NCBI RefSeq assembly: GCF_044324875.1
Contig: NZ_CP172185.1
Length of the DNA stretch: 64,000 nucleotides
DNA from: Escherichia coli
GTDB taxonomy: Bacteria > Pseudomonadota > Gammaproteobacteria > Enterobacterales > Enterobacteriaceae
Strand: one strand, 5' to 3'
Below, piece by piece: positions 20,961 to 61,698 of this stretch. The notes beneath the pieces are model-generated. The model was not told the DNA's origin. It saw only the letters and a list, made by a program, of their open reading frames with translations, and did not search any database. The translations under genes were made by a program, and so were the position numbers. Numbering within the stretch: the first letter of the stretch is position 1; each line of letters starts with the position of its first letter.

Positions 20961-22472
20961 ATGTTCACGGCAACAGAGGCAGTCCCGGTAGCAATAGTGG
21001 TAGCTGGAAATAAGCGTTATCCCGGCGTCGTTGCGCTGGATAACGTTAACTTCACGCTCAATAAAGGAGAAGTTCGTGCGCTGTTAGGCAAAAACGGCGC
21101 GGGCAAATCGACCCTCATTCGAATGCTTACCGGCAGTGAACGTCCGGATAGCGGTGATATCTGGATTGGCGAGACGCGACTGGAAGGTGACGAAGCTACG
21201 TTGACTCGCCGTGCCGCTGAACTGGGGGTTCGTGCGGTTTATCAGGAGTTAAGTCTGGTGGAGGGACTGACGGTGGCGGAAAACCTCTGCCTCGGTCAGT
21301 GGCCCCGCCGCAACGGCATGATTGATTACCTGCAAATGGCGCAGGATGCCCAACGTTGCTTACAGGCGCTGGGCGTTGACGTTAGCCCTGAACAACTTGT
21401 TTCAACGCTAAGCCCGGCGCAAAAGCAACTGGTGGAAATTGCGCGGGTGATGAAGGGCGAGCCGCGCGTGGTCATTCTTGATGAACCTACCAGTTCGCTT
21501 GCCAGTGCGGAAGTTGAACTGGTGATCAGCGCGGTTAAAAAGATGTCGGCACTGGGCGTGGCGGTGATTTATGTCAGCCACCGGATGGAAGAAATCCGCC
21601 GCATTGCCTCCTGTGCCACCGTTATGCGCGATGGTCAGGTAGCGGGCGATGTGATGCTCGAAAACACCTCCACGCATCATATTGTGTCGCTAATGCTCGG
21701 GCGCGATCACGTTGATATTGCGCCGGTTTCCCCTCAGGAAATTGTCGATCAGGCTGTGCTGGAAGTCCGTGCGTTACGCCATAAGCCCAAGCTGGAGGAT
21801 ATCAGCTTTACGCTCCGTCGTGGCGAAGTGCTCGGCATTGCTGGCCTGCTGGGGGCAGGGCGCAGTGAATTGTTGAAAGCCATAGTTGGGCTGGAGACGT
21901 ATGAACAGGGCGAAATTGTTATCAACGGCGAGAAAATCACGCGCCCCGATTACGGCGACATGCTGAAACGCGGCATTGGCTATACGCCAGAAAACCGCAA
22001 AGAAGCGGGGATCATTCCCTGGCTGGGCGTTGACGAAAATACAGTGCTGACCAATCGGCAAAAAATCAGCGCCAACGGTGTGCTGCAATGGTCCACCATC
22101 CGCCGCCTGACCGAAGAGGTGATGCAGCGGATGACGGTCAAGGCCGCCAGTAGCGAAACGCCCATCGGCACGCTTTCTGGCGGCAATCAGCAAAAAGTGG
22201 TGATCGGTCGTTGGGTCTATGCCGCCAGCCAGATTTTGTTGCTCGACGAGCCAACGCGTGGCGTCGATATCGAAGCCAAACAGCAGATTTACCGTATTGT
22301 CCGCGAGCTGGCTGCCGAAGGAAAAAGTGTGGTGTTTATCTCCAGTGAAGTGGAGGAGTTGCCGCTGGTGTGTGACCGCATCCTGTTATTACAGCACGGT
22401 ACGTTCTCGCAGGAGTTTCACTCGCCGGTCAATGTGGATGAGCTGATGTCCGCCATTCTGTCTGTGCACTGA
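20961..22472 (+). CDS. yphE: ABC transporter ATP-binding protein, duplicated ATPase (sugar-import type)
   Basis: Two nucleotide-binding domains with Walker A GKNGAGKST / GLLGAGRSE and signature LSGGNQQK. Confidence 0.9.
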   Translation: MFTATEAVPVAIVVAGNKRYPGVVALDNVNFTLNKGEVRALLGKNGAGKSTLIRMLTGSERPDSGDIWIGETRLEGDEATLTRRAAELGVRAVYQELSLVEGLTVAENLCLGQWPRRNGMIDYLQMAQDAQRCLQALGVDVSPEQLVSTLSPAQKQLVEIARVMKGEPRVVILDEPTSSLASAEVELVISAVKKMSALGVAVIYVSHRMEEIRRIASCATVMRDGQVAGDVMLENTSTHHIVSLMLGRDHVDIAPVSPQEIVDQAVLEVRALRHKPKLEDISFTLRRGEVLGIAGLLGAGRSELLKAIVGLETYEQGEIVINGEKITRPDYGDMLKRGIGYTPENRKEAGIIPWLGVDENTVLTNRQKISANGVLQWSTIRRLTEEVMQRMTVKAASSETPIGTLSGGNQQKVVIGRWVYAASQILLLDEPTRGVDIEAKQQIYRIVRELAAEGKSVVFISSEVEELPLVCDRILLLQHGTFSQEFHSPVNVDELMSAILSVH

Positions 22473-22496: not shown

Positions 22497-23495
22497 ATGT
22501 CTGCTTCGTCATTACCATTGCCGCAGGGCAAGAGCGTCTCGCTCAAACAATTTGTCAGTCGCCATATTAATGAGATCGGTTTGCTGGTGGTGATCGCCAT
22601 TCTTTATCTGGTCTTCTCCCTGAACGCGCCGGGCTTTATCTCATTGAATAACCAGATGAACGTGCTGCGCGATGCCGCCACCATTGGGATTGCCGCCTGG
22701 GCGATGACGCTGATTATTATCTCCGGTGAAATTGATGTCAGCGTTGGGCCGATGGTGGCTTTTGTCTCGGTGTGCCTGGCATTTTTGCTGCAATTTGAAG
22801 TTCCGCTGGCGGTGGCGTGTCTGCTGGTGTTGCTGTTAGGCGCGCTGATGGGAACGCTGGCCGGGGTGCTGCGCGGCGTGTTTAACGTACCAAGTTTCGT
22901 TGCCACACTGGGGCTGTGGAGCGCCCTGCGCGGAATGGGGCTGTTTATGACCAACGCCCTGCCAGTGCCGATTGACGAAAACGAGGTACTGGACTGGCTG
23001 GGTGGACAATTTCTCGGAGTGCCGGTATCCGCGCTGATCATGATGGTGTTGTTTGCGCTGTTTGTGTTCATCAGCCGCAAAACCGCCTTCGGGCGCTCGG
23101 TTTTTGCTGTTGGCGGTAATGCCACTGCAGCACAGTTGTGCGGCATCAACGTTCGTCGGGTGCGCATTCTTATCTTTACCCTTTCGGGATTATTAGCGGC
23201 GGTGACCGGCATTTTGTTGGCGGCGCGCCTCGGTTCCGGTAACGCAGGTGCCGCAAACGGTCTGGAGTTTGACGTCATCGCCGCGGTCGTGGTCGGTGGT
23301 ACGGCACTTTCCGGCGGTCGCGGTTCCCTGTTTGGTACATTGCTTGGTGTGTTGGTGATTACGCTAATCGGTAACGGTCTGGTGCTGCTCGGGATTAACT
23401 CCTTTTTCCAGCAGGTGGTGCGCGGCGTCATCATCGTGGTGGCGGTGCTGGCGAATATCTTGCTGACTCAGCGAAGCAGTAAAGCGAAACGCTAA
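22497..23495 (+). CDS. yphD: ABC transporter permease (RbsC/AraH-like)
   Basis: 332-aa polytopic hydrophobic protein immediately after yphE. Confidence 0.85.
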   Translation: MSASSLPLPQGKSVSLKQFVSRHINEIGLLVVIAILYLVFSLNAPGFISLNNQMNVLRDAATIGIAAWAMTLIIISGEIDVSVGPMVAFVSVCLAFLLQFEVPLAVACLLVLLLGALMGTLAGVLRGVFNVPSFVATLGLWSALRGMGLFMTNALPVPIDENEVLDWLGGQFLGVPVSALIMMVLFALFVFISRKTAFGRSVFAVGGNATAAQLCGINVRRVRILIFTLSGLLAAVTGILLAARLGSGNAGAANGLEFDVIAAVVVGGTALSGGRGSLFGTLLGVLVITLIGNGLVLLGINSFFQQVVRGVIIVVAVLANILLTQRSSKAKR

Positions 23496-56715: not shown

Positions 56716-57870
56716 ATGTCTGAACAATTAGTCACACCTGAAAACGTCACCACGAAAGATGGAAAAATCAACCTGCTGGATCTCAACCGTCAGCAGATGC
56801 GGGAGTTTTTTAAAGATTTAGGTGAAAAACCCTTCCGCGCCGATCAGGTGATGAAGTGGATGTATCACTATTGCTGCGACAACTTTGATGAGATGACCGA
56901 CATCAACAAAGTGTTGCGCGGCAAACTGAAAGAGGTGGCGGAGATCCGCGCACCGGAAGTGGTTGAAGAACAGCGTTCATCTGACGGCACCATTAAATGG
57001 GCAATTGCCGTTGGCGATCAGCGCGTCGAAACGGTGTATATCCCGGAAGACGACCGTGCCACGCTCTGCGTCTCTTCGCAGGTGGGGTGTGCGCTGGAGT
57101 GTAAATTCTGTTCCACCGCCCAGCAGGGCTTTAACCGCAACCTGCGGGTATCGGAAATTATCGGCCAGGTGTGGCGTGCAGCGAAAATCGTCGGCGCAGC
57201 AAAAGTCACCGGTCAGCGTCCAATCACTAACGTAGTGATGATGGGCATGGGCGAGCCGCTGCTCAACCTGAACAATGTCGTTCCGGCGATGGAAATCATG
57301 CTTGATGATTTCGGTTTTGGCCTGTCTAAACGTCGCGTGACGCTTTCCACTTCCGGTGTAGTTCCGGCGCTGGATAAACTGGGCGATATGATCGACGTTG
57401 CACTGGCAATTTCCCTGCACGCGCCGAACGACGAAATTCGTGACGAAATTGTGCCGATCAACAAAAAGTACAATATCGAAACGTTCCTTGCTGCGGTACG
57501 CCGTTATCTGGAGAAATCCAACGCCAATCAGGGCCGAGTCACTATTGAATACGTGATGCTTGACCACGTTAACGACGGCACTGAACACGCGCACCAACTG
57601 GCGGAGCTACTGAAAGATACGCCGTGTAAGATCAACCTGATCCCGTGGAACCCGTTCCCTGGCGCGCCGTATGGACGCAGTTCGAACAGCCGTATCGACC
57701 GTTTCTCAAAAGTGCTGATGAGCTACGGTTTCACCACTATTGTGCGTAAAACTCGTGGTGATGATATCGATGCTGCCTGTGGTCAGTTGGCGGGCGATGT
57801 TATCGACCGTACGAAACGTACCCTGCGTAAACGGATGCAGGGTGAAGCCATCGATATTAAAGCGGTCTGA
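56716..57870 (+). CDS. rlmN: dual-specificity RNA methyltransferase RlmN (radical SAM)
   Basis: 384-aa ORF with radical-SAM CxxxCxxC (CALECKFC). Confidence 0.93.
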
Positions 57871-58154
57871 TAGCCATTACGCCACGGTTACTTTATGTAC
57901 CGTGGCGTAATCTTTTATGAATGAAGTATTAAGTTGCAATTGTCTGGTCAATATTAACGGTGCGTTTTTGCTGACTTTAAGGCAGTATGTAACGATGCAA
58001 CAGTAAGTTAGCCTTAGTGAATGTGGGCTTTGTCACGAGCACACAGACGGTCTTATACTGTATGATAACGGTTAACTTAACGGATGTTTCGCGGTGTGGG
58101 TGAGCATGATGGTTCACCGGCATCTCAATTCTCATTTAAACGTACCTGCAGCGA

Positions 58155-59168
58155 ATGAATACTGAAGCCACGCACGACCAAAATGAAGCACTTACTACCG
58201 GCGCTCGCCTGCGTAATGCTCGCGAACAACTAGGACTTAGTCAGCAGGCCGTTGCCGAGCGACTTTGCCTGAAGGTTTCCACGGTACGCGACATTGAAGA
58301 AGATAAGGCACCCGCCGATCTTGCTTCAACATTCCTGCGCGGATATATCCGCTCTTATGCGCGTCTGGTACATATTCCAGAAGAAGAACTGCTGCCAGGG
58401 CTGGAAAAGCAGGCTCCACTTCGGGCTGCAAAAGTTGCGCCGATGCAGAGTTTTTCCCTCGGTAAACGCCGCAAAAAACGCGACGGCTGGCTGATGACCT
58501 TCACCTGGCTGGTGTTGTTTGTGGTTATCGGCCTGAGCGGTGCCTGGTGGTGGCAAGACCACAAAGCTCAGCAGGAAGAGATCACCACTATGGCCGATCA
58601 ATCTTCGGCGGAATTGAGCAGTAATAGCGAGCAGGGGCAGAGTGTTCCGTTAAATACGTCGACAACTACAGACCCGGCTACAACGTCCACGCCGCCAGCG
58701 TCTGTGGATACTACCGCAACCAACACGCAAACACCTGCCGTAACTGCGCCAGCACCAGCTGTTGATCCGCAACAGAATGCGGTTGTTTCGCCTTCGCAGG
58801 CAAATGTTGATACCGCCGCGACCCCGGCACCAACGGCAACAACAACGCCAGATGGTGCTGCGCCGTTGCCAACCGATCAGGCTGGCGTGACCACGCCGGC
58901 GGCTGATCCGAATGCGCTGGTGATGAACTTTACTGCCGATTGCTGGCTGGAGGTCACTGATGCTACCGGTAAAAAACTGTTTAGCGGGATGCAGCGTAAA
59001 GACGGTAATTTGAATTTAACCGGCCAGGCACCGTATAAACTGAAAATTGGTGCGCCAGCCGCAGTACAGATCCAGTATCAAGGGAAACCTGTCGATCTGA
59101 GTCGTTTTATCAGAACTAACCAGGTTGCGCGTCTGACCCTCAATGCCGAACAATCACCGGCGCAGTAA
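58155..59168 (+). CDS. rodZ: cytoskeleton protein RodZ
   Basis: 337-aa ORF: N-terminal HTH (Xre-like), single TM helix, Pro/Thr/Ala-rich periplasmic linker, C-terminal domain. Confidence 0.9.
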
Positions 59169-59194
59169 CAGACGGGTAACGCGGGAGATTTTTC

Positions 59195-60313
59195 ATGCAT
59201 AACCAGGCTCCAATTCAACGTAGAAAATCAACACGTATTTACGTTGGGAATGTGCCGATTGGCGATGGTGCTCCCATCGCCGTACAGTCCATGACCAATA
59301 CGCGTACGACAGACGTCGAAGCAACGGTCAATCAAATCAAGGCGTTGGAACGTGTTGGCGCTGATATCGTCCGTGTCTCAGTACCGACGATGGACGCGGC
59401 AGAAGCGTTCAAACTCATCAAACAGCAGGTTAACGTGCCGCTGGTGGCTGACATCCACTTCGACTATCGCATTGCGCTGAAAGTAGCGGAATACGGCGTC
59501 GATTGTCTGCGTATTAACCCTGGCAATATCGGTAATGAAGAGCGTATTCGCATGGTGGTTGACTGTGCGCGCGATAAAAACATTCCGATCCGTATTGGCG
59601 TTAACGCCGGATCGCTGGAAAAAGATCTGCAAGAAAAGTATGGCGAACCGACGCCGCAGGCGTTGCTGGAATCCGCCATGCGTCATGTTGATCATCTCGA
59701 TCGCTTGAACTTCGAACAGTTCAAAGTCAGCGTGAAAGCGTCAGACGTCTTCCTCGCTGTTGAGTCTTATCGTTTGCTGGCAAAACAGATCGATCAGCCG
59801 CTGCATCTGGGGATCACCGAAGCGGGTGGTGCGCGCAGCGGGGCGGTTAAATCCGCCATTGGTTTAGGTCTGCTGCTGTCTGAAGGCATTGGCGACACGC
59901 TGCGCGTATCGCTGGCGGCCGATCCGGTTGAAGAGATCAAAGTCGGTTTCGATATTTTGAAATCGCTGCGTATCCGTTCGCGCGGGATCAACTTCATCGC
60001 CTGTCCAACCTGTTCGCGTCAGGAGTTTGATGTTATCGGTACGGTTAACGCGCTGGAGCAACGCCTGGAAGATATCATCACTCCGATGGACGTTTCGATT
60101 ATCGGCTGTGTGGTGAATGGCCCAGGTGAGGCGCTGGTTTCTACACTCGGCGTCACCGGCGGTAACAAGAAAAGCGGCCTCTATGAAGATGGCGTGCGCA
60201 AAGACCGTCTGGACAACAACGATATGATCGACCAGCTGGAAGCGCGCATTCGTGCGAAAGCCAGTCAGCTGGACGAAGCGCGTCGAATTGACGTTCAGCA
60301 GGTTGAAAAATAA
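59195..60313 (+). CDS. ispG: 4-hydroxy-3-methylbut-2-enyl diphosphate synthase
   Basis: 372-aa [31 protein letters not shown]...; [4Fe-4S] cysteines CPTCSR...C. Confidence 0.95.
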
Positions 60314-60423: not shown

Positions 60424-61698
60424 GTGGCAAAAAACATTCAAGCCATTCGCGGCATGAACGATTACCTGCCTGGCGAAACGGCCATCTGGCAGCGCATTGA
60501 AGGCACACTGAAAAACGTGCTCGGCAGCTACGGTTACAGTGAAATCCGCTTGCCGATTGTAGAGCAGACCCCGCTATTCAAACGTGCGATTGGTGAAGTC
60601 ACCGACGTGGTTGAAAAAGAGATGTACACTTTTGAGGATCGCAATGGCGACAGCCTGACTCTGCGCCCTGAAGGGACGGCGGGCTGTGTACGCGCCGGCA
60701 TCGAGCATGGTCTTCTGTACAATCAGGAACAGCGTCTGTGGTATATCGGGCCGATGTTCCGTCACGAGCGTCCGCAGAAAGGGCGTTATCGTCAGTTCCA
60801 TCAGTTGGGCTGCGAAGTTTTCGGTCTGCAAGGTCCGGATATCGACGCTGAATTGATTATGCTCACCGCCCGCTGGTGGCGCGCGCTGGGTATCTCCGAG
60901 CACGTAACTCTTGAGCTGAACTCTATCGGTTCGCTGGAAGCACGCGCCAATTACCGCGATGCGCTGGTGGCATTCCTTGAGCAGCATAAAGAAAAGCTGG
61001 ACGAAGACTGCAAACGCCGCATGTACACTAACCCGCTGCGCGTGCTGGATTCAAAAAATCCGGAAGTGCAGGCGCTTCTCAACGATGCTCCGGCATTAGG
61101 CGATTATCTGGACGAGGAATCTCGTGAGCATTTTGCCGGTCTGTGCAAACTGCTTGAGAGCGCGGGGATCGCTTACACCGTCAACCAGCGTCTGGTGCGT
61201 GGTCTGGATTACTATAACCGTACCGTTTTCGAGTGGGTGACTAACAGCCTCGGTTCCCAGGGCACCGTGTGTGCAGGCGGTCGTTATGACGGTCTGGTGG
61301 AACAACTGGGTGGTCGTGCTACACCGGCAGTCGGTTTTGCGATGGGCCTCGAACGTCTTGTATTGTTAGTTCAGGCCGTTAATCCGGAATTTAAGGCCGA
61401 TCCTGTTGTCGATATATACCTGGTGGCTTCAGGTGCTGATACACAATCTGCGGCTATGGCATTAGCAGAGCGTCTGCGTGATGAATTACCGGGCGTGAAA
61501 CTGATGACCAACCACGGCGGCGGCAACTTTAAGAAACAGTTTGCCCGTGCTGATAAATGGGGTGCCCGCGTTGCTGTGGTGCTGGGTGAGTCTGAAGTGG
61601 CTAACGGCACAGCAGTAGTGAAGGATTTGCGCTCTGGTGAGCAAACGGCAGTTGCGCAGGATAGCGTAGCCGCGCATTTGCGCACGTTACTGGGTTAA
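60424..61698 (+). CDS. hisS: histidine--tRNA ligase
   Basis: 424-aa [21 protein letters not shown]... with GTG start; class II aaRS motifs. Confidence 0.95.

Follow-up and report, generated by a model that had tools for sequence, protein, structure and literature searches.

What is the strongly biased stretch in the middle of rodZ, and why should it vary between strains when the rest of the gene does not? The 64-kb window analysed here, a single stretch of 64,000 nucleotides of Escherichia coli DNA, carries rodZ at 58155-59168, listed among its open reading frames as 337 aa plus stop and lying between rlmN and ispG (all features below are on the + strand). The translation matches the RodZ equivalog NF008109 (NCBIfam / PRK10856) at 610.4 bits against a cut-off of 208, over residues 1-333 of 337. 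The order rlmN-rodZ-ispG-hisS is kept in loci L001-L011, and rodZ is annotated, chromosomal and single-copy in 5425 of 5426 E. coli genomes, never on plasmids. Strain P276M has a rodZ that looks broken; pbpC and rlmN are frameshifted too in that assembly, and on the strength of these frameshifted neighbours the broken gene was put down to sequencing error and set aside as biology. RodZ binds MreB and has a role in rod shape (PMC6946637, PMC6052060).

The architecture of the protein gives the stretch its context. [quoted passage not shown] The single transmembrane segment, aa 112-133 (58488-58553), was located by Kyte-Doolittle hydropathy, the top 19-aa window of RodZ being 112-130 with a mean of 1.94; PDB 6s0k chain k spans residues 106-138. 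Just before it lies a basic juxta-membrane stretch, KRRKKRD, which under the positive-inside rule makes the segment C-terminal to the membrane periplasmic, as in PMC6946637; from these two sources we infer an N-in, C-out topology with one transmembrane helix. The sequence-only reading had assigned the biased segment to the periplasmic part of RodZ, and the NF008109 match, the hydropathy peak at 112-130 and the KRRKKRD stretch N-terminal to the segment all uphold that assignment. Next comes a membrane-proximal periplasmic segment, aa 134-154 (58554-58616), near-invariant in alignments of 31 and 135 sequences. It lies directly upstream of the PT-rich spacer and coincides in part with a published motif at aa 138-155 that activates MreC; RodZ residues 138-155 are reported to bind MreC (bioRxiv 10.64898/2026.01.05.697639). 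The Pro/Thr/Ala-rich low-complexity spacer itself, aa 155-250 (58617-58904), is marked out by composition, entropy, AF2 modelling, divergence and length variation, and is followed by the RodZ_C (DUF4115) beta-domain at aa 256-328 (58920-59138; Pfam PF13464, E 2.4e-24), which has zero amino-acid differences among E. coli alleles. The region is very probably the known Pro/Thr-rich disordered periplasmic spacer of this bitopic cell-shape protein, a connection with the transmembrane helix and the MreC-binding motif (aa 138-155) on one side and RodZ_C on the other.

The bias in composition can be stated without reservation. The segment first remarked on, 58620-58900, corresponds to rodZ residues 156-249 (58620 opens codon 156 in frame, and 58900 falls inside codon 249), and the peptide quoted for it matches residues ~172-208 of the RodZ translation. 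This is a near-match to the natural edges of the spacer, which fall at ~155-250 (nt 58617-58904) by composition, conservation and structure prediction. Residues 156-249 are 23% T, 18% A and 16% P, for a combined Pro+Thr+Ala content of 57%, and have a Shannon entropy of 3.07 bits vs 3.9-4.0 in the two folded domains. A scan of 13,946 windows of 94 aa, taken from all 45 long ORFs of the 64 kb that do not overlap one another, places the rodZ spacer at the extreme on both measures, with the lowest entropy (2.97 vs 3.25 in the next ORF) and the highest P+T+A fraction (0.62 vs 0.34 in the next ORF). Against a P+T+A background of 0.197, the binomial tail for 54/94 is 9e-16. The bias is thus far beyond chance, and the description of this linker as compositionally biased, made from the letters of the DNA, holds. 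Over the whole periplasmic linker of 122 residues, the composition is 20% T, 18% A, 13% P and 9% S; F/W/Y/I/L/M/C account for only 6 of the 122 residues, and acidic residues outnumber basic ones 13 to 1. The ORF with the second-lowest entropy (22497-23495) encodes a hydrophobic, membrane-permease-like protein and is ordinary.

Such a bias could in principle reflect something other than the RodZ protein, such as an overlapping gene, a structured RNA, a simple-sequence contingency locus or the remnant of a mobile element. Two weak signals can be cited for a reading of this kind. Tandem Repeats Finder gives, as the only tandem repeat in the spacer, a 19-nt, period-9, 2.1-copy array with a score of 31, and a terminator-like 5-bp hairpin is found at 58767-58782, within shuffle expectation. 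Everything else points away from it: ORFs in other frames across the stretch reach at most 53 aa, the RNA fold z-score is -0.64, and an Rfam E-value scan of 57600-59400 gave one sub-threshold match, which lies outside rodZ, and none in the gene. Counts of promoter- and terminator-like sites are at or below shuffle means, and a search for dispersed repeats returned only chance-level short matches. The gene is a chromosomal single copy in 5425 genomes, and the frame is kept in every indel allele. A non-protein origin of the bias is therefore next to impossible in our estimation, and the original statement that the segment is neither a repeat nor a mobile element stands. A tandem-repeat or contingency locus was rejected on further grounds, in that allele lengths form three lineage-associated classes with no copy-number ladder and the indels sit at scattered microhomologies.

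As a protein segment, the spacer is probably unstructured. In the AF2 model the transmembrane helix runs on to residue 151, after which residues 152-250 have no secondary structure and a pLDDT of 31-35, compared with 75-84 for the RodZ_C strands; the model was built on a shallow alignment of 31 close sequences, and even the HTH domain, whose fold is well established, stays at pLDDT <50, so that the AF2 disorder signal is weak when taken alone. No PDB chain with a solved structure was found over the spacer. Published work describes the periplasmic part of RodZ as a disordered domain followed by a beta-domain (PMC6946637) and labels the RodZ periplasmic region 'PT-rich' (bioRxiv 10.64898/2026.01.05.697639).

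The spacer also evolves at its own pace. Among close homologues its mean identity is 79% vs 98% in the domains, and protein-level divergence from the window protein is ~21% in the spacer vs ~2% in the flanking domains, about ten times faster. All amino-acid differences among four aligned E. coli alleles fall within residues 136-250. Linker dN/dS is 0.26-0.53, with dN = 0 in the domains; constraint on the spacer is relaxed, but some purifying selection remains. Positive or diversifying selection as the main driver was rejected, because dN/dS is below 1 and the protein is periplasmic and not surface-exposed. Within this variable background lie two conserved islands. The first, at aa 206-221 (58770-58817), is seen in both the 31-sequence and the 135-sequence alignments. 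Thirteen of its residues (Q207, N208, A209, V210, V211, P213, S214, Q215, A216, N217, D219, T220 and A221) do not vary across 31 sequences from Escherichia, Citrobacter and Salmonella, and runs 206-211 and 213-221 are conserved in 135 unique sequences. The second, at aa 236-250 (58860-58904), leads into the C-terminal domain; its conserved run is 236-243, from which conservation mostly continues to residue 255. To call the segment a linker is thus apt as far as a biased, low-complexity segment goes, but it is not uniform or featureless. The near-invariance of the islands across Escherichia, Citrobacter and Salmonella implies a sequence-specific function, so the spacer would not be purely passive. 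Of 150 distant representatives, just the 6 nearest keep an AVVSPSQ-like motif; the island was for this reason rejected as a RodZ-wide feature and can be regarded as one at family level only.

Does the spacer vary in length between strains, as the sequence-only reading predicted? It does, by small steps. An even sample of 118 complete E. coli genomes shows just three rodZ lengths: 1014, 1008 and 1011 nt. The 1014-nt class makes up ~76% of the 118, and the 1008-nt class takes in ST131, Nissle 1917 and APEC IMT5155. Both indels that separate the three alleles fall in the linker, so the linker is indeed a site of length variation and its length is not identical in all strains; the scale is modest (1-2 codons, three classes), and the locus is not hypervariable. 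The 337-, 335- and 336-aa alleles appear to be old, lineage-associated variants. Over greater distances the same segment absorbs far larger changes. Across 146 clusters of close homologues, lengths outside the linker are all but fixed (N-terminal part 111 aa in 143, transmembrane part 22 aa in 144, RodZ_C 82 aa in 144), and the linker ranges from 72 to 123 aa. In 127 distant homologues (representatives at 30-68% identity) the spacer measures 76-190 aa, with a median of 119. Hot spots for indels, mapped on 135 unique sequences, lie at aa 157-160, 171-176, 188-194 and 224-230. The spacer takes up essentially all of the length change of RodZ.

Larger changes within E. coli can be found in rare isolates, which carry in-frame linker deletions of 25, 34 and 50 codons with microhomologies of 3-8 nt at their edges. 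The 34-codon case (L008) lost 102 nt, window-equivalent 58719-58820. Its edges lie in an imperfect 18-nt direct repeat, with the left copy GTGGATACTACCGCAACC (VDTTAT) at 58704-58721 and the right copy GTTGATACCGCCGCGACC (VDTAAT) at 58806-58823, and junction analysis places 3 nt of exact microhomology within this 14/18-matching repeat. In L005, 150 nt (50 codons; window-equivalent 58673-58822) were lost between two copies of CCCGGC, at 58673-58678 and 58823-58828, a microhomology of 6 nt by the same analysis. L006 and L007 each lost 75 nt (25 codons) at an 8-nt microhomology, again from the junctions. One edge is GCACCAGC at 58752-58759; its partner at 58827-58834 has the same letters, GCACCAGC, on the L001-type (335-aa) backbone but reads GCACCAAC in the window. 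This 75-nt deletion allele is present in 5 contigs, among them two independent samples (GCA_024846065.1 and ERR11812397). The three large deletions are known from draft or read-derived assemblies; when complete genomes were queried with each deletion allele, full-length alleles aligned in two pieces and ranks were tied. All indel alleles keep the reading frame. The larger deletions are rare and probably young or mildly deleterious. As to how they arise, we propose that a coding sequence so biased inevitably holds short imperfect direct repeats, which would serve as the substrate for length change. Replication slippage or illegitimate recombination between such repeats could then shorten or lengthen the spacer, with in-frame products being tolerated.

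The substitutions that distinguish the common alleles are also unevenly placed, and they raise the question of whether the allele classes arose by mutation in place or were brought in. Variable tract A (aa 152-186; 58608-58712) combines a substitution cluster with a 2-codon indel (aa 157-158), which parts the 337-aa class from the 335/336-aa classes. Over the 99 aligned nt of tract A the window differs from the APEC IMT5155 allele (L001) at 21, and over the other 3219 nt of the locus at 62. Differences between species number 19-27 in tract A and 232-238 in the rest of the locus, giving a within-E. coli to between-species ratio of 0.78-1.11 in the tract vs 0.26 elsewhere (Fisher p = 0.0016 with E. 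marmotae and 4.5e-05 with E. albertii). Variable tract B (about aa 190-206; 58721-58772) is a substitution cluster with a 1-codon insertion found only in the 336-aa class (L002), and the window differs from L002 at 12 of 52 nt there vs 43 of 3219 nt elsewhere (Fisher p about 4e-4 to 7e-4). Linker dS is 0.19-0.32 vs 0.05-0.10 in rlmN and ispG. Synonymous divergence in tracts A and B is 2-4 times that of the flanks, and simple relaxed constraint does not account for either tract. The finding that over ~105 nt E. coli lineages are as divergent as Escherichia species suggests mosaic recombination.

One explanation is that short-tract homologous recombination may have brought tracts A and B from other Escherichia lineages, which would make the gene a mosaic and the length polymorphism a by-product. 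The match of tract A divergence within E. coli to the between-species level, with the rest of the locus far lower, would fit such an origin, as would the raised linker dS over rlmN and ispG and the repetition of the tract A pattern by tract B in L002 (p about 5e-4). The 2-codon gap state NNN--QSQ, moreover, occurs in E. marmotae as well as in the 335/336-aa alleles of E. coli (L001, L002), and the ungapped state is found in the window class, E. whittamii-like clades, Citrobacter and Salmonella, a distribution incongruent with the species tree. The L002 lineage also has a foreign-looking hisS nearby. Against this, no near-identical donor tract was identified, comparison with E. fergusonii gives no significant difference in the ratio (p = 0.45), counts are small in tracts of only 52-105 nt, and the DNA-level alignment comprises four E. 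coli alleles only. Recurrent indels combined with fast, multi-hit substitution in low-complexity sequence could mimic the pattern. On balance, recombination as the source of the allele classes is possible but less likely than not. A broader version would have the spacer as a mosaic, in which ~50-105-nt tracts are swapped between Escherichia lineages or species to leave two or three ancient E. coli haplotypes, and in which the islands at aa 206-221 and 236-250, flanked by the tracts, could serve the Rod complex in the periplasm as uncharacterised sites of docking or self-association; this combined proposal is somewhat unlikely.

What, then, might the spacer do? We propose that it acts mainly through its physical properties, as a flexible, acidic, polar and protease-tolerant tether. 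With such a tether, the beta-domain and a pair of short conserved motifs could make contact, away from the membrane, with partners in the periplasm or with further copies of RodZ. Judging from comparative lengths, neither exact sequence nor exact length would be of much consequence once a minimum of some 75 residues is reached. RodZ constructs ending at residue 142 or 155 still give rod-shaped cells, and the disordered domain promotes RodZ self-interaction (PMC6946637). Alternatively, and in partial overlap with the tether, the spacer could be a scaffold for short linear motifs, in which the islands at aa 206-221 and 236-250 dock or self-associate and the PT-rich stretches separate them. The islands are near-invariant over three genera, with neighbouring residues that vary freely and carry indels, and in vivo photo-cross-linking shows that RodZ dimerises via the disordered domain (PMC6946637). 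Natural isolates with the L005, L006/L007 and L008 deletions nevertheless survive loss of the first island, the motif is gone beyond about 50% identity (6 of 150 representatives), and GFP-RodZ 1-155, from which the PT-rich region is missing altogether, complements a rodZ deletion even when little inducer is given (bioRxiv 10.64898/2026.01.05.697639). A motif scaffold is possible, if rather doubtful. Modification offers a further reading, in which the Thr/Ser-rich extracytoplasmic segment would be a substrate for O-glycosylation. Thr makes up 20% and Ser 9% of this linker beyond the membrane, and there is a streptococcal precedent: in Streptococcus pneumoniae, glucosylation of the Ser/Thr-rich linker of RodZ by GtrB raises the protein level (PMC11092751). 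The E. coli linker cannot be aligned with the streptococcal one, however, and the NCBIfam Streptococcus RodZ model scores 34 bits vs a cut-off of 375. E. coli K-12 is not known to possess a general pathway for O-glycosylation, nor is E. coli RodZ known to be O-glucosylated in its linker. A glycosylated E. coli spacer is highly improbable.

Other envelope proteins have Pro/Thr/Ala-rich spacers that span the periplasm, such as the proline-rich region of TonB; these are low-complexity, extended and fast-evolving, and their length is thought to matter rather than their sequence. Unlike these spacers, that of RodZ shows no sign of a need to span the whole periplasm. The disordered parts of the Bacillus subtilis and E. 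coli proteins are presumably unrelated in sequence; the comparative set used here reached only 30% identity. As cited in PMC6946637, the NMR assignment of the B. subtilis RodZ ectodomain (Pereira et al. 2015) likewise has a disordered stretch followed by a beta-rich fold. The linker IDR of S. pneumoniae RodZ is likewise extracytoplasmic, rich in hydroxy-amino acids and disordered, and it is O-glucosylated by GtrB (PMC11092751), a modification not known for the E. coli protein. The closest relative is E. coli RodZ (YfgA) itself. Published accounts of its 'disordered domain' or 'PT-rich region' (Ikebe et al. 2018, cited in PMC6946637; bioRxiv 10.64898/2026.01.05.697639) describe the same gene, residues and architecture, with nothing different in kind.

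The spacer is therefore already described in the literature, where published domain schemes draw a PT-rich disordered region, and differences of 1-2 codons between major E. coli lineages are ordinary for such a fast-evolving segment. RodZ is a well-studied component of cell elongation, and the observation is of little importance, opening no new question. Its additions are descriptive: E. coli has three common linker lengths, apparently by lineage; rare isolates from nature live with the loss of 25-50 codons, a conserved island among them; and the spacer of distant homologues never falls below about 75 residues in the set examined. This information can be used to guide the design of linker truncations or the search for RodZ periplasmic contact motifs. 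The window and published E. coli RodZ have in common the HTH domain, juxta-membrane stretch, transmembrane helix, PT-rich region and beta-domain. Window and K-12-type alleles share 99% identity and differ at 3 amino acids, all at residues 136-250: the window has H136, T229 and A249-A250, and the K-12-like allele R136, A229 and V249-A250. The UniRef name of the 337-aa window allele is RODZ_ECO55, which is the common allele and not the K-12 sequence.

The rodZ open reading frame lies on the plus strand at 58155-59168 (337 codons), with rlmN (56716-57870) adjoining it on the upstream side, where ndk also sits, and ispG (59195-60313) and hisS on the downstream side. Its product matches the RodZ equivalog NF008109 (NCBIfam) at 610 bits over residues 1-333, against a cut-off of 208, and carries the Pfam domains HTH_25 at the N terminus (residues 18-79) and RodZ_C (residues 256-328). 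The sole strongly hydrophobic segment, residues 112-130, is directly preceded by KRRKKRD, and RodZ is therefore predicted to be oriented N-in, C-out, in agreement with its published topology (PMC6946637). Of 5426 complete E. coli genomes, 5425 carry the gene as a single chromosomal copy, and none has it on a plasmid. One genome of the 5,426 had no match to rodZ by megablast. The complete genome of E. coli P276M (NZ_CP044293.1) lists rodZ as a pair of pseudogene fragments; since the adjoining pbpC and rlmN are frameshifted too, the likely cause is an error-rich assembly and not a true loss of rodZ.

The stretch 58620-58900 is in frame and codes for RodZ residues 156-249, which are rich in Thr (23%), Ala (18%) and Pro (16%) and have an entropy of 3.07 bits, compared with 3.9-4.0 in both folded domains. 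Among 13,946 windows of 94 aa taken from 45 long, non-overlapping ORFs across the 64 kb, the RodZ spacer was the most extreme on both measures, with an entropy of 2.97 bits (next ORF, 3.25 bits) and a P+T+A fraction of 0.62 (next ORF, 0.34). For residues 156-249, with 54 of 94 being P, T or A, the binomial tail is 9e-16 against a local background of 0.197. Over the whole spacer (residues 134-255), just 6 of 122 residues are bulky hydrophobic, aromatic or Cys, and 13 are acidic versus 1 basic. The sequence-only reading, which had quoted a peptide corresponding to residues ~172-208, is confirmed in its observation of a compositionally biased RodZ linker, and its interpretation is supported. The second-lowest-entropy protein stretch of the window is a very hydrophobic, permease-like membrane protein of 332 aa (ORF 22497-23495), which adjoins an ABC ATPase-like ORF (20961-22472). 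Low complexity of the kind found in this permease-like protein is ordinary for membrane proteins.

[quoted passage not shown] RodZ truncations ending at residue 142 or 155 keep rod shape (PMC6946637), and low inducer is enough for GFP-RodZ 1-155 to complement a rodZ deletion (bioRxiv 10.64898/2026.01.05.697639). The RodZ linker of S. pneumoniae, likewise disordered and rich in Ser/Thr, undergoes O-glucosylation (PMC11092751). It cannot be aligned with the E. coli linker, and nothing here suggests O-glucosylation in E. coli.

Variation among strains was assessed in two evenly spaced samples of 60 rows from 5,425 matching genomes; one P276M row per sample was set aside for its error-ridden assembly, leaving 118 rows. 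Only three rodZ lengths were seen in these rows: 1014 nt (337 aa; 89/118), 1008 nt (335 aa; 24/118) and 1011 nt (336 aa; 5/118). As estimated from identity bands and the samples, the 1014-nt class comprises ~4,128 genomes (76%) and the other two classes together ~1,296 (24%). ST131, Nissle 1917 and APEC IMT5155 belong to the 1008-nt class. UniRef gives the name RODZ_ECO55 to the protein of the window, a common allele, and RODZ_ECO27 to the 335-aa allele. Alignment of the window allele with the K-12-like, APEC IMT5155 and 336-aa alleles placed all amino-acid differences in residues 136-250, with none in the HTH, TM or RodZ_C parts, and revealed two indels: a gap of 2 codons (residues 157-158) and, near residue 195, an insertion of 1 codon. 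Spacer length thus differs between strains, as had been predicted.

Beyond E. coli, domain length is fixed and spacer length varies. In 146 close homologue clusters from Escherichia, Citrobacter and Salmonella, the N-terminal part is 111 aa long in 143 clusters, the TM segment 22 aa in 144 and RodZ_C 82 aa in 144 (mean identity to the window protein 98%, 95% and 98%), while the spacer ranges from 72 to 123 aa at 79% identity, with indel hot spots at residues 157-160, 171-176, 188-194 and 224-230. In 127 full-length distant representatives (30-68% identity), with both domains placed by HMMs from the close set, the spacer measures 76-190 aa (median 119), never under ~75 residues, and is rich in A, S, T, E, P, V and Q. 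From these lengths and this composition it follows that what is conserved is the presence of a long acidic polar spacer, and neither a given sequence nor an exact length.

Pairwise comparisons gave dN = 0 in residues 1-133 and 256-337 and a spacer dN/dS of 0.26-0.53, with no sign of positive selection on the spacer, which indicates that purifying selection there is relaxed rather than absent. Residues 134-154, directly upstream of 58620-58900, are almost invariant and coincide with residues 138-155, reported in a 2026 preprint as the periplasmic MreC-binding motif 'CAD' (bioRxiv 10.64898/2026.01.05.697639). Two islands within the spacer, residues 206-221 and 236-250, show conservation in Escherichia, Citrobacter and Salmonella alike; an AVVSPSQ-like motif is kept in only 6 of 150 distant representatives, the 6 nearest. 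Self-interaction of RodZ through its disordered domain has been described in a review (PMC6946637). An AlphaFold2 model built from 31 close sequences has a helix over residues 111-151, a beta-domain at pLDDT 75-84 and no secondary structure in residues 152-250 (pLDDT 31-35), and backs disorder only weakly because the HTH domain is low-scoring too. The PDB has no chain over the spacer or over the C-terminal domain of the E. coli protein, and its sole strong sequence match, 6s0k chain k, is a 57-residue 'Cytoskeleton protein RodZ' fragment comprising the TM segment as a nascent chain (window 58470-58568, residues 106-138).

A protein search also returned shorter forms of E. coli RodZ (287-319 aa), and DNA was examined for three. 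These carry in-frame deletions of 150 nt (window-equivalent 58673-58822; junction at a 6-nt CCCGGC repeat), 75 nt (two independent samples, five contigs; junction at an 8-nt GCACCAGC repeat) and 102 nt (58719-58820; junction within an imperfect 18-nt repeat coding VDTTAT / VDTAAT). Junctions of this kind would be expected from replication slippage or illegitimate recombination at short direct repeats, in which biased coding sequence necessarily abounds. The large-deletion alleles are singletons or near-singletons and therefore probably young or mildly deleterious. The spacer is most likely a flexible periplasmic tether, punctuated by a few conserved motifs, whose physical length would count more than its sequence and would shift by well-tolerated, microhomology-mediated in-frame indels.

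Other readings of the same DNA found little in their favor. Open reading frames in other frames of the spacer are all <=53 aa, which argues against an overlapping gene; its RNA is predicted to be no more stably folded than shuffled sequence (z = -0.64), with no Rfam match inside rodZ; and promoter and terminator matches do not exceed shuffle expectation. Tandem Repeats Finder gave one 19-nt array (score 31) and nothing else, and a repeat finder returned short imperfect pairs only. With no repetitive DNA, in a single-copy chromosomal gene never on plasmids, the span is not a mobile or repeat element, as the sequence-only reading held.

The 284-nt rlmN-rodZ gap contains a single sigma-70-like promoter match (58030-58059; TTGTCA, 18-nt spacer, TATACT, 10/12), ~95 nt upstream of the rodZ start and within shuffle expectation. 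Six bases past the rlmN stop codon (57868-57870) begins an inverted repeat (57876-57911) whose 12-bp arms, ATTACGCCACGG / CCGTGGCGTAAT, pair perfectly around a 12-nt loop; CTTTTAT follows, and the whole is probably the rlmN terminator; a simple terminator scan missed it because the loop is >8 nt. A sub-threshold Rfam match, BcKCsr7, overlaps it (20.8 bits versus a gathering score of 59).

The positions at which the 335/336-aa alleles depart from the window class are clustered, not spread. Tract A (58608-58712) holds 21 differences in 99 nt versus 62 in 3219 nt across the rest of the rlmN-rodZ-ispG locus, and a second cluster, tract B (58721-58772), occurs in the 336-aa allele. Within E. coli, tract A diverges by 21%, as much as it does when E. 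coli is compared with E. albertii or E. marmotae (18-30%), and the within-to-between ratio is ~0.26 outside the tract (Fisher p = 0.0016 and 4.5e-05); against E. fergusonii, the excess is not significant by Fisher test. Synonymous divergence is 0.19-0.32 in the spacer versus 0.05-0.10 in flanking genes. E. marmotae has the 2-codon gap in common with the 335/336-aa alleles of E. coli, and the ungapped state occurs in the window class, E. whittamii-like clades and outgroups. Together, these alignments suggest that the alleles arose by short-tract recombination or are haplotypes of great age, with simple drift the less likely origin; both tracts are short, and no donor was found for them.

The 3' part of rodZ coding for RodZ_C (58920-59168; L011:2266-2517 in the E. 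fergusonii locus) is only 2.0% divergent when E. coli is set against E. fergusonii, compared with 8.5% for codons 1-133 at the 5' end; in E. marmotae and E. albertii the same 3' part differs by 5-6.5%; the low 3' divergence may be another sign of a rodZ mosaic between Escherichia species. At the 336-aa allele locus of AR Bank #0349 (NZ_CP041996.1), the ispG gene that separates rodZ from hisS is unremarkable, at 98.6% nt identity. The start of hisS there (L002:3767-4011, window 60424-60668) diverges strongly from the window: the last ~245 nt hold ~81 differences, and protein identity is 75% over 77 aligned residues. This hisS, annotated at 1290 nt versus 1275 nt elsewhere, looks like a replacement by a foreign allele.
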